A stretch of 64,000 nucleotides of DNA from Octopus sinensis. Taxonomy: Eukaryota. A program made the translations under genes and the position numbers. Below are positions 10,749 through 19,058 of this stretch, in pieces; positions within the stretch are counted from its first letter, which is position 1, and the number at the start of each line of letters is the position of its first letter. The notes beneath the pieces are model-generated. The model was not told where the DNA came from, searched no databases, and saw only the letters and a program-made list of their open reading frames with translations. Location: NCBI RefSeq assembly GCF_006345805.1, contig NC_042998.1, positions 138,322,001 through 138,386,000 on the forward strand. The letters run 5' to 3'.

Positions 10749-12550
10749 AGAATAACTTAGAATAACTTAGAAAGGTCATGTCTAACTTAATAGCACCACC
10801 TGGCGAAGTCTTTCAGTTCAGGATTTGGGCACCAATGCCCATTCGAGCAGAGAGTTATTGTTTGCGGAGACATATCCGGGTGTGGTGTTTGTCCGGTACT
10901 GTTTGAAGGAATTTGTCCAAAGACTTCTTGATTTTGTTGTGGTCAGTTTCTTTTTTGACGTGCCCTGGTGTAATGTTGAAGAGAGCAGGTCCAATTGAGG
11001 TGAAATAGTTGTGCCGTATTGTCGTTATGTGATGCGATTTAGATTTTTGTTGTGGACGGATGGCACGTGTCCTAGCCTTGGATGCATTTTGAAGGTGATG
11101 CCAACATCATTCGGACAGTGCTGGTGGAATATTTTCCACATCATACAGATGATGTAGCGTTCACGGCGTCGTTGGAGTGAATACAATTTCAGCTTCTCTA
11201 GTCTACCCCAGTAGTCAAGGTCTGACATGCCATCTATCTTTTTTGTGATTGACCTTTGGGGAGCTTCAATTCTCATAATATTTTGTTTGTGTAGGGAGAC
11301 CACAGTGGACAGCAGTATTCAGGTGGGGGTCGGGCAAAAGTGGAGAAGAGAAGGATAATAGCGTGGGAATCTCTCGACTGGAAGGTTCTGAGAATCCAGG
11401 AACACATTCTGCGGGCCATGTCAACTTTGCTGCTTATATGTGTAGCCCAGCTTATGTTGTTGTCCACTGTTACTACTCCCCGGTCTCTGATGTTGTTGGA
11501 TGCCATGAGAATTTCTCCAGAAGGAAGAGAGTATGGGAGTTTCAGAATGTCCTCTCTTCCAAAGTGGATCAGTTCAAATTTGTCTTCATTTAGCAACATG
11601 TTATTCTTTTCCGCCCATTGGACAACAGCCAGTAGGTCTGACTGAAGGTTTATTCGGTCATCCACGCCATTGATGACCTTCTGGAGCTTGGAATCATCAG
11701 CGAAGGTTCTGATGTTACTGTGTTTGATGGTGTCAGTAATATCATTTATGTAGATGATGAAGAGAAGTGGGCCTAACACAGTGCCTTGTGGGACACCACT
11801 GCTGACTTTGGCTGGGCTGGATTTGACTCCTTCGACTACAACATGTTGGGTTCTGTTAGACAGGAAGCACTTGATCCCTGCAGCAGCTTTCAGTGACACC
11901 AATATTGGACAGCTTTCTCGAAGGATCTTATGATCAACCCTGTCAAAGGCCTTGCTGAAATCAAGGTAGATGACATCAGTGTTGGAACCTTCTCCCAAGG
12001 CTCTCAAAATGTCATCAAAATGATGCAGTAAGCTGCGTCAGGCAATCTCTCCCATTACGGAATCCATGCTGGTTGGGGTTCAGCATATTATGACTCTCAA
12101 GGAAGTGAGTCATACGCGATCTCAGTACCCTCTCAAATACCTTGATGATATGAGAGGTGAGTGAGATTGGACGGTAATTCACAGCAAGCGATTTGTTTCC
12201 TTTCTGAAAACTGGACAACAGACTGGGATAAGGTCTTCTGGTATATATCCAGCATCCAGTGAGTTCCGCCACAGATTGGCTAGAGGGGGTGCAAGTTGGT
12301 TTGACACATCTTCAAGACACAAGCAGGGAACCTATCGGGACCTACTGCTGAATTATGCTTCATTTCCTTTATTGCTGCTAAGACATCAGGAGCGCCAAAT
12401 GTTATGTCCGATAAAGTGTATTGGGGAGTAACATCACTGATACAGCCCAGATCAGTCATATCAGGATTGCTGAAAACAGAGCAATATTGTTTCTGCAATA
12501 TCTCTCCCATGGTTTTGGCATTGTCTTGAAGAGTACCATTTTCATCAATC
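10749..12550 (-). mobile_element. 5'-truncated CR1-group LINE (RT domain, frameshifted) with tandem 3' tail
   Basis: NYRPISLTS, YLDFSKAFDRV, GVPQGTVLGPLLF, FADD and LYSLQRRRER motifs; the 3' end is (TTCTAAGTTA)x2 on minus at ~10749-10772; the 5' end abuts (TAGA)n. Confidence 0.92.
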
Positions 12551-15039: not shown

Positions 15040-17815
15040 CAAGTCGATCATCCTGGAAAAATCTACTCAGTGGTATTTGGCGGACTTCTGGATTTTTAAT
15101 TTGTTGTCTGTGCACACGTGAGCGTTCTGATAGTGCATAACCTGTCTGGCCAACATACAGTTCTTCACAATTCGGGCATTTGATGCAGTAGATTAAATTT
15201 CTACTTTTGCAGGTTCATATTTGCGCTGGTGAATATTTTCCCCGTTTTTGTGTTCATATACGGGCCGGTATGAATTAATTGGCATGCACCGCTCGGCTAT
15301 CATTGCATTTAGACACAGTGAATGGTTGGTGTTTGTTGCTAAGGTCAAACCTTACTTTTGTTAATAACTTTTTCAAGCTTTTAGGATGTCTTTTACTGAG
15401 ACTTTTTTTTTTTTTTTTGGTCTATAATATCTCTTAATTCCTTACTTTGAGCAGTGATTGGTAGGTTTGCTTTAGCGATATTGAAGATGTTCTGGTAGCA
15501 TGGATTGTGCGTCACTATAAATGGTATGATTTGTTCTTATTTTTCTCTTCTTTGTGTTGTCCTCAGTTGTTGAGTGGGCATATTCATAGCCCGCTGAATA
15601 CCATTTTCTATAAGTAGTGACGGGTATTTTTGTTCGAGCAGAAATTCTTTCAGTTCCATCAGGTGCTGATTCCTGATCTTCAAATCTTCTACAATGGTAC
15701 AGATTCTCCTAGCTAAGCAGTATGGTACGTTACGTTTTGTATGCAGTGGATGGCACGATTTAAAATTCGGGTATTGATGTTTATCTGTGTGTTTATAATA
15801 TATATCTGTGGTAATGATGGTGTTCTTTTTAATTACTATTATATCTAGGAATGGTAATTTGGTACTGCTCATCTCCTTTGTAAATTGGATGGATGGGTGT
15901 AGGTTGTTCAGGTGGATATTGAATTCTTCCATGGTGTTTCGAGATTTTGCCCAGATTATGAAGCAATCGTCGAGGTGTCTCTTTGATGTCTTTTCAATAT
16001 ACTTCCTAAATTCAGTGCTGTACCTCTCTTCTATTTCCTGGTAGAGTTTTGTTCTAAGTATCTCATCACCGAGTTCGCGTAAACGGGAGCAAACTATGTT
16101 CCCATAGACGTGCCTTTAATTTGGATGTAGTTCTTTCCATTGAAGAAGAAAGTGTTGTTTTCGAGTCTAATATAAATGTCACTGTGAATTTGTTGGGAAT
16201 TGCTTCTCTATGTTTATCTAACCAGTATTTAATCGCTTTTATTCCTAAATCATGTGGGATATTGGTGTAAAGGCTTACAACATCAAAACTCGGTAGGATT
16301 GAGTTTGTTTCAGATGTTTTGAGAAGATGGGACAGGAAATCGATGTCACCCCGAATGAAGCTAGGTGTGTAAGTACATAGTGGTTTCAAAATAATGTCGA
16401 TGAAATTGCTTAGACGATGGGTAGGGCATGCTGAGCCAGCTATAATTGGTTTAAGTTTTAAGTCTTTTGGATATAGTAATTTTATGTATTCACTTCCTTG
16501 TTCTTTTACTGCCTGTTGAATATCTTCTGACTTATGTATTTTTGGTAAGCCGTAAAAGTTGCTGGGTTTTGGCTCGAAATTGGTGATGTATTCTCTTTCA
16601 TTGTCAGTGAGTGAGTTGTAGTGTTTTGAAACCAGATAGTTGATCTTCTTCATGATGTGGTGATCTATATTAGAGGGTATTTCACAATAGAAGGTTGTAT
16701 CCTTCAGTTGGTCATCAACCAAATTTTATAGTATTCCACATTCATAATAACAATTGCACCCTCTTTATCTGCTTGTTAAATTATTATTGTTTCATCGCTT
16801 TGCATGCGTTTAAGTGCAGATATCTCTGATTTGTTAACATTAAGCCTAAACTTAGTACTATGTTTTAGGGGAAAGTTTTGATAGGATGTCAATATATTGG
16901 TCATGGTAGATATTTCTGCCATTTGGTGGGGTGAAATTTGATTTATTCCTTACTAAGAATTCTTCGGTCTCATTATTGTTGTTATTGTTGTTGTTGCTGC
17001 TGCTGTTGTTGTTAGTAAAGAATTCCACAAGTCGCAACCTACGACAGAATTTTTGGATATCTTCCTTTAGTTCATGGTGGTTGACTGTTGGTGTAGCTGT
17101 AAAGTTTAGGCCTTTTAACAGGAGTTGGATTACATCATTGTCAAGATCTCTTTTGGAACAATTAATTATCTTAGGATCTATATGTCCAGTTGTTTTGGGT
17201 ATGTTTCCTCTTGGAATTTTTCTTTCTCCGGTGTTTGTTGTCCTGACATTAAAAAAAAAAGAATTTTTTTCTGTTTGTGATTTCCATTTCTGTTGGTGTT
17301 AACTTGAAGATTGTGTTTTAGTTGTGTTATTTTACCTGGCTTTGTTATGTTTTGTGTCCTATTTTTGGAATTATACATTTTATTTTTCAATTTGTTTCCG
17401 GTTCTTGATCGGTTCTTTTATTCTCAGTTTTTTGCAGGTAGTCTTTGTTGAGGTTTTGAAAATGATCTATTATTTCTACTTCTAACGGCCTGATCAAAGG
17501 AATATTTATCTTGATTATGTTTTTTTGTTTATATTGTGTATATTAGAGTGTTTGATTACGAAAAGGGAAGAGTTCTTATCATAGTTCCTCTTTAACTCGT
17601 GGTGGAGCGTCCATGTTGCCCCATGTTCTGGCTTTTGTTACGTTGGTGAGATTGTTCTCTTTCACTGTTATTTCTCTGAGTTCTACAGTCTTTACCGTAA
17701 TTGGTAGCATATTTATCGAGGAATAGTTGATTCTGCTGCCATAATTTTCTTGATTTGCTCTCTTCGTTTTTGAGATATCTTTGGTCCATAGTTCTCGCAT
17801 TTTCCCCCTAGATTG
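15040..17815 (-). mobile_element. Penelope-like retroelement, RT + GIY-YIG endonuclease, disrupted ORF
   Basis: INCSKRDL..KGLNFTATP, ADKEGAIVIM, FYGLPKIHK, FDVVSLYTNIP, RHLDDCF and LPFLDI motifs, then NLIYCIKCPNCEELYVGQT (GIY-YIG, ~15145-15200). Confidence 0.93.
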
Positions 17816-18529: not shown

Positions 18530-19058
18530 TATGTCTTGTAAACAACTTGCAGATGCAAGTGCTGCCAGTTGGAACCTCCGCATACCGGATGTCAGCAAGT
18601 TTATGAGGTCATCAGGAGAGAATGCGCGCGCCGTTTCGGGGCCTACCTCTTGACGGTATCAATGCTACCGGTCTCCCTCGGTGAAATGAGGCCCCGCCTG
18701 CTAGATAAACTGGTCATCAGATTTAGCTCAATATTCTTCTAGCCATTGCTCATCGTCTCTTTTTAACCAAATCCAGTGGCTTGCCTTTTTTCCACTGTAG
18801 TTTGGATATTACTCACGGTGGTATTTCCTTTACAATGAGTTAGGCCTAACGATAACAACAGTCGCCCCACACTGTGTCCAACGAATCCCCTACATACGAC
18901 TTTGGAAAATGGTCCGCTTTCCGTCCTGCGTCTTCGCATTCCTCGAGGAGTTTACATAACGGTCAATCTTTTAAGCCAAAGCAGCGTCCATGTTATCTTC
19001 ATGAGGAAACGTTAACTCGACTAGGTTTACCACTTTCTTTCTTTTACACCATATGATA
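18530..19058 (-). mobile_element. 3' end of an RLE-type non-LTR retrotransposon, HERO-like
   Basis: [64 protein letters not shown] matches restriction-like endonuclease C-termini; frameshifted; stop at 18728-18730. Confidence 0.8.
18609..18695 (-). ncRNA. Rearranged (non-circularly permuted) hammerhead ribozyme candidate in the LINE 3' UTR
   Basis: Minus strand GGGGCCT..CCGTC-AAGAGG-T-AGGCCCC-GAAACGG..TCTCTC-CTGATGA; all core nucleotides are present and three stems can form. Confidence 0.6.

Follow-up and report, generated by a model that had tools for sequence, protein, structure and literature searches.

The 3′ untranslated regions (UTRs) of HERO-like LINEs contain a conserved RNA fold which, judged by sequence comparison across families, carries a complete hammerhead ribozyme core. 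We consider this a real hammerhead variant in a new host element, with a layout that was not found in the literature searched. The original prediction, a non-circularly permuted, split-core hammerhead in the 3′ UTR with a cut at GUC, came from one copy in a 64,000-nt stretch of Octopus sinensis DNA (the window), and parses of the family support this predicted fold. The window copy (19054-18531, minus strand) is a 5′-truncated repeat copy with 87% identity to its best genomic relatives. Its parts are as follows.

18531..19054, minus strand: copy of a non-LTR element with reverse transcriptase (RT) and restriction-like endonuclease (HERO-like), 5′-truncated, with a broken ORF end and the whole 3′ UTR
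18728..18730, minus strand: ORF stop codon (frame broken)
18692..18704, minus strand: helix IV 5′ strand (GGGG and an extension past a bulge)
18676..18691, minus strand: hairpin V, between helix IV and stem II with 0 unpaired bases; two pairs lost in the window copy
18670..18675, minus strand: stem II 5′ strand, G10.1 first; 2 mismatches in the window copy
18664..18669, minus strand: 5′ strand of the stem I/II interaction helix (X), shortened in the window copy
18653..18657, minus strand: stem III 5′ strand, ending in G16.2-U16.1
18651..18652, minus strand: predicted scissile bond C17/N1.1, placed by hammerhead analogy and by the pile-up of short-copy 5′ junctions
18646..18651, minus strand: stem I 5′ strand, whose first pair is A.C in the window copy and G-C in the family
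18638..18643, minus strand: stem II 3′ strand
18630..18637, minus strand: G12-A13-A14 and stem III 3′ strand (A15.1, C15.2 and onward); 29/29 families
18622..18627, minus strand: interaction helix (X) 3′ strand
18616..18621, minus strand: stem I 3′ strand
18609..18615, minus strand: core C3-U4-G5-A6-N7-G8-A9; six positions fixed in 29/29 families, N7 free
18593..18608, minus strand: helix IV 3′ strand, beginning directly after A9
18577..18589, minus strand: small hairpin 3′ of the ribozyme, common to close relatives (from sequence)
18531..18560, minus strand: terminal hairpin and fixed insertion end, ~119 nt past the cut (from alignment of copies); likely to serve as the RT priming signal

When the letters were read again, every string on which the original prediction was built was found on the minus strand where it had been placed: GGGGCCU at 18695-18689, 32 nt after the stop codon (18730-18728) and 32 nt before CCGUC; the cut site at 18652/18651; GAAA at 18637-18634; CUGAUGA at 18615-18609; and a second CUGAUGA at 18720-18714. 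The 22-mer across the predicted cut has 511 exact copies in the Octopus sinensis genome. The A.C first pair of stem I had been put down to decay, and because 28 of the 29 other copies in the alignment have G at position 1.1, it is indeed private decay of the window copy. The second CUGAUGA is a private change as well, present in 0/29 other copies, and proved irrelevant to the fold. Rfam at gathering thresholds gave no match in the window, in keeping with the expectation that standard descriptors would miss the fold. The window copy is mismatched in stems I, II and III, hairpin V and the interaction helix, and its ribozyme is probably a dead, decayed member. Taken by itself, this copy would suit a chance look-alike in a GC-rich UTR: the two core words sit at chance level in the window (1 match to the GAAAC..CUGAnGA pair versus 0.57 expected, with 40 of 100 shuffles as good), and shuffles fold as well as this copy does. 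The motif's significance therefore comes from conservation across the family and not from the window copy alone. Two other retroelement traces lie in the window: a remnant with an RVT_1 fragment at 11273-12037 (minus strand), and two frames at 15537-16725 (minus strand) that are presumably of a Penelope-type RT, which they resemble by motifs, with no Pfam match.

Matches in the genome were obtained for 40/40 scored DNA candidates and 150/150 scored protein candidates. Long copies encode a single ORF with an RT domain (RVT_1) and a C-terminal region typical of restriction-like endonucleases (RLE); we take the PD..D/E motif of this ORF to be that of an RLE. R2 proteins are the closest relatives of solved structure, and a weakly aligned part of the comparison covers their endonuclease region. 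No family match to a GIY-YIG endonuclease was found in the element, and the nearest structures were those of R2 and L1, so it is not Penelope-like. Named relatives occur in Octopus bimaculoides (87%), a lancelet (44%), a cnidarian and a fish; among molluscs, R2-Hero elements have been reported mainly from cephalopods. Unrelated flanks in 58 copies indicate that insertion is mostly not target-specific, a feature of HERO elements (PMC4640811). The HERO-like LINE named as host in the original prediction thus stands in its RT and RLE layout, and we keep the label HERO-like for this putative member of the HERO clade.

An alignment of 62 endonuclease-region proteins yielded relatives at 80 metagenome loci and 3 genome-bin loci, with 32-60% identity; two weak partial protein matches in viral contigs were left out. 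The three matches in prokaryote genomes are probably host DNA. One relative with a hammerhead parse lies on a 539-kb contig filed as a Rhodospirillales MAG (L149) and is likely host DNA in the bin. By eye the 3′ UTRs of the relatives defy alignment, yet in most of them CUGAnGA lies 20-30 nt after GAAAC.

To avoid circularity, we searched these UTRs with a parser that asks for nothing but five helices enclosing unpaired stretches of 7, 3 and 1 nt, with no sequence required. Input was 74 relatives' 3′ UTRs of at least 150 nt, with dinucleotide shuffles, reverse complements and ORF stretches as controls. A score of at least 60 was reached by 45/74 UTRs, as against 3/592 shuffles, 11/74 reverse complements and 3/68 ORF stretches. 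At 70 or above there were 35/74 UTRs and none of the 592 shuffles, 74 reverse complements or 68 ORF stretches, and this count fell to 8 with a core gap of 6 or a cut-site gap of 0. The gaps of 33 of the 35 read CUGAnGA, GAA and GUH, a perfect core. With the core emerging unasked in this way, and with 35/74 UTRs set against 0/592 shuffles, a chance look-alike is refuted at the level of the family, and we give it next to no credence.

Clustering at 75% protein identity produced 49 clusters, including that of Octopus sinensis. In 29 of them a member scored at least 65; the 20 without such a parse may be decayed, truncated, beyond the limits of the parser or truly without the motif. From the 29 we took representatives by helix score only (median protein identity 45%). 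In all 29, C3, U4, G5, A6, G8, A9, G12, A13 and A14 are invariant, and the pairs A15.1-U16.1 and C15.2-G16.2 are present. N7 takes all four bases (U16/C7/G4/A2), and H17 is C12/A10/U7, never G. These core bases match the hammerhead consensus given in PMC3088659. G10.1-C11.1 was found in 26/29 representatives versus 38/205 shuffle parses; since the parser picked the pairs, paired fractions lean high, and the shuffles serve as the control. The other pairs vary freely, with 191 Watson-Crick pair swaps by parsimony on the protein tree. Stems I, II and III abut the core and covary, as in hammerheads. Across the 29 families the core is fixed and the stems swap pairs, the two features that the original prediction proposed to check.

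The strands of the fold run in the order IV5′-V-II5′-X5′-III5′-H|I5′-II3′-GAA-III3′-X3′-I3′-CUGAnGA-IV3′. Here the original prediction needed correction. It had drawn stem II as GGGGCCU/AGGCCCC, strands which can pair, yet not in the conserved register: among nine close relatives that register leaves 76% of cells paired, shows a double change in 1/7 pairs and has its first pair broken in 5/9, and we rejected it. With the second G-run (18675-18670) as 5′ strand, 83-94% of cells are paired and 3/6 pairs show double changes in the same nine relatives. GGGG pairs with the bases right after CUGAUGA, forming helix IV, and CCUCA opens hairpin V. The linker between stems I and II, given as 1 nt in the original prediction, varies from 0 to 7 nt across families. 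In 29/29 representatives A9 leads straight into helix IV; the join of A9 to stem II seen in hammerheads, interrupted by no more than 1-2 bases, is absent. The stretch from IV5′ to II5′, which the parser does not score, closes end-to-end as hairpin V in 26/29 families and in 2/205 shuffle parses. Helix X, the stem I/II contact, is present in all representatives, with double changes in 2/5 pairs among the nine close relatives.

Stems I and II are both pseudoknotted, and nested folding consequently displays only IV, V, X and III. The nested folds of two close relatives prefer to pair the 3′ strand of stem I, or the core, elsewhere: at L067:1852-1965 and L062:290-410 (minus strand), an octopus-side fold pairs hairpin V or the G-run with the stem I 3′ strand and the core. 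This modelled competing fold is a candidate off state of the octopus-side subgroup. Pairing of the V loop with the core was also considered as a universal switch and rejected; the loop shows no covariation with N7 across families, so the idea is kept for the octopus-side subgroup only. The loop of hairpin V contains a 6-8 nt palindrome in 16/29 representatives (UGAUCA in 12, UGGCCA in 2 and GACGUC in 2), and the change from UGAUCA to UGGCCA, which keeps self-complementarity, hints at kissing-loop dimers of hairpin V.

In its succession of cut strand, GAAA strand and CUGAnGA strand, the fold resembles type-SGC hammerheads (HRIMA-1 and variants; Eckert et al. 2023, PMC10085705), and it shares with them a short stem I-II linker, a helix that connects stems I and II on their distal sides, and a doubly pseudoknotted core. 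Type-SGC hammerheads cleave and, according to that paper, were found only in metatranscriptomes, with none in the genome of a known organism. There CUGAnGA runs into stem II as "block C," assumed to be unbreakable, whereas the fold described here opens it; because block C is not intact, we do not file the fold as type SGC. Unlike type SGC as described there, the element has the stem II 5′ strand and the interaction strand upstream of the cut, A9 leads to helix IV and hairpin V, both cleavage products would stay paired by four helices, and the hosts are animal LINEs. Canonical SGC pairing directly after CUGAnGA amounted to only 0-2 pairs in most parses and was discarded. The literature searched contained no further type-SGC paper, and we found in it no tested hammerhead with a two-helix insert at A9-G10.1.

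The cut site was named before genomic copies were scanned for junctions. Among 30 protein-picked copies, 29 run through the ribozyme to the fixed end ~119 nt past the cut; copies ending at GUC numbered 0/30 in this set and 0 in a genome-wide probe, whose single match of this kind was an internal duplication. Copies beginning at the cut do exist. A first probe, which demanded three non-element bases upstream, gave 8 matches, 7 of them beginning exactly at the base after GUC and six being stand-alone inserts of ~120 nt. Probes of the same design gave 0 matches three bases upstream of the cut and 1 three bases downstream. A scan of 12 positions returned 31 matches; the 30 that were fetched comprised 13 internal changes and 17 true junctions, of which 6 fell at the first base after the cut (P = 0.002 if uniform, with one duplicate pair included). 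A 47-position scan was weaker: its 64 matches contained 22 junctions, with 3-5 at the cut (3 scored, one ORF-joined and one inverted case fitting the cut) and 4 at +25. A separate reading by eye gave 4-5 at the cut versus ~16 across 22 upstream positions. In all scans together, 13 distinct loci begin at the scissile bond, and 3 of these join ORF sequence to that base. The numbers are small, and these junction fossils suggest cleavage in vivo. On the evidence of sequence conservation and junctions, real cleavage by the element's ribozyme is very likely.

Almost all copies nevertheless carry the site uncut, and because most keep it intact, cleavage must be slow, reversible or switched off. The same observation could favor a hammerhead-shaped but catalytically silent module for RT docking or priming, with tandems arising from adjacent insertion or template jumps; the separation of A9 from stem II and the octopus-side nested folds, in which a competing helix sequesters the core or stem I, would also fit such a module. 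From a binding module, however, one would not expect exactly the catalytic bases to be fixed, with N7 free and G17 forbidden, over 29 families. With the second G-run taken as the 5′ strand of stem II, helices IV and V are compatible with a hammerhead. There is also an excess of copies that begin at the scissile bond, and private variants are shared between the two ends of a locus. We consider a silent docking fold improbable; it fits the data less well than an active ribozyme acting on linear RNA.

The arrangement of long copies bears on what would follow cleavage. Long genomic copies have no fixed 5′ end. A query just inside the apparent start found 41 genomic places; 30 were fetched and 28 reached the start. 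Upstream of the start, each of the 28 passes by one and the same junction into the 3′ end of the element itself. Their upstream pieces measure ~10 nt to ~1 kb; ~12 of the 28 are one amplified insertion, which leaves ~15 independent lengths, and in 11 of these the upstream GUC is passed intact. Four further loci are also head-to-tail; at L327, BLAST found no upstream piece. One head-to-tail insertion is present in at least 12 near-identical copies, at G000:C18 3.7-5.2 Mb and on unplaced contigs, which reflects segmental amplification. At loci where both ends were aligned and compared by eye (n = 11), 3 share private variants between the ends, 6 share subfamily variants, one is ambiguous and one (L322) has discordant ends; in whole-piece identity between upstream and downstream ends, decay after insertion dominates. 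Seven of 28 ordinary 3′ ends extend into the junction sequence by 2-5 nt, which internal priming would predict. In distant relatives, the N-terminal ORF lies directly 3′ of the ribozyme in 5/59 contigs. Of the sequencing runs that contain the element, none is registered as RNA. In run X1, guessed to be RNA, one contig joins up with itself over a deleted unit of ~1.25 kb that has the ribozyme and the junction, where a circle and a tandem are indistinguishable. Internally deleted, non-autonomous copies with units of 0.6-1.5 kb were seen at eight loci (L228, L229, L232, L237, L242, L255, L328 and L329), and all eight retain the ribozyme and the 3′-to-5′ junction.

The reading that we prefer, and hold to be probable on these sequence data, is that the fold self-cleaves after GUH and rejoins the RNA into a unit-length circle which the RT copies. 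A transcript through a head-to-tail copy would carry two ribozymes, and two cuts would release a unit RNA of ~3.7 kb. The two ends of this unit would stay paired by helices II, III, IV and X, and since ends so held favor the reverse reaction, ligation to a circle could follow. The RT/RLE protein would then prime internally, ~119 nt past the cut, and run round the circle for a variable length, producing 5′-truncated and unit-length copies as well as copies longer than one unit, which would be the next donors. Priming on unligated linear RNA would halt at the cut and leave inserts of ~120 nt. An RNA circle would account for long copies that run head-to-tail into themselves; for this component, circular RNA, we judge the case fairly good. 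Against the model, A9 is detached from stem II, a join that Eckert et al. took as obligatory, and template jumping or linear tandem transcripts can also yield head-to-tail copies.

The latter point leads to a second account with an active ribozyme, in which the RNA stays linear: the upstream cut would make its 5′ end, the downstream site would remain uncut or nicked but held, and the RT would jump between RNA ends. The conserved core, the junction peak at the cut and the ORF pieces joined to that base are all explained in this way, ribozyme processing of R2 co-transcripts is established, and most of the data can be accommodated by linear RNA with template jumps from end to end. This account has more difficulty with the 11 of ~15 upstream pieces that pass GUC intact, up to ~1 kb, which require that the cut did not happen, that the RNA was religated or that the jump was letter-perfect, and with the absence of an indel scar at the cut site in all 58 aligned copies. 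We regard the linear account as unlikely, while giving it appreciable weight.

The hammerheads of Penelope-like elements (Cervera and de la Pena 2014, PMC4209133) likewise lie in the terminal region of a retroelement with head-to-tail partial tandems, and they conserve, or commonly have, a single additional base between A9 and 10.1. A circular RNA template for more-than-unit copies has been proposed, and is unproven, for these elements. Their hammerheads are minimal type I motifs in circular order that depend on dimers, and they accompany a GIY-YIG endonuclease and a telomerase-like RT; in the element studied here the stems are full, the strand order is non-circular, two helices are inserted, and the RT is R2-like and followed by a C-terminal RLE. 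The HDV-like ribozyme of R2 (PMC12222951, PMC13580325, PMC6765202) also frees an RLE-type non-LTR element from a longer transcript. R2 has an HDV fold at its 5′ end, a linear RNA with a defined 3′ end and site-specific insertion into rDNA; the element studied here has its hammerhead 3′ of the ORF, lacks a defined 5′ end and inserts at dispersed sites. Retrozymes and the Varkud satellite RNA undergo cleavage and ligation to circular RNA that is reverse transcribed (PMC6765202), as proposed here; they are non-coding and need the RT of another element, whereas this element encodes its own RT and endonuclease. In the available text of the review PMC6765202, ribozymes are named only for R2, L1Tc, schistosome SINEs, Penelope elements and retrozymes, and in the literature searched we found no report of a hammerhead in HERO or other RLE elements.

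If the fold is what it appears to be, it would add a hammerhead topology beyond the six permutations thought possible and would be the first non-circularly permuted hammerhead in animal genomes, tied to a defined host element of which dozens of natural variants exist. In its fullest form, the proposal would make HERO-like LINEs autonomous retrotransposons with a circular RNA genome of ~3.7 kb, made and sealed by their own seventh-topology hammerhead and inserted by internal target-primed reverse transcription (TPRT); we see the chances for and against it as balanced. The same circular-genome reading would have the core, opened at A9-G10.1, lock both products together, giving a protein-coding, viroid-like circle in the R2 group across animals, and here too we stand midway between acceptance and doubt. 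A LINE clade would then replicate without a 5′ end, from an internal priming site and probably on a circular template. The genomic fossils, that is, the scissile-bond starts and wrap-around copies, make the circular-template model directly testable. A ribozyme that holds its products, together with an internally priming RT, would be of practical interest for RNA circularization and for R2-type insertion tools.

Two minor features of these sequences were also recorded. About 20 of the 64 matches in the 47-position scan (G000) share a recurrent short deletion between two GTG words, which removes the 3′ side of hairpin V and the stem II 5′ strand and may mark one subfamily or a slippage hot spot. 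Just past the 3′-to-5′ junction, at L062:3820-3965 (minus strand), lies a tandem array of five small hairpins that share one purine-rich loop of 6 nt (fold z = -2.3), and similar repeats occur 3′ of the ribozyme in L074, L095, L105, L108, L111 and L112. This array at the start of the element is possibly a protein-binding array or a cap-independent translation signal.
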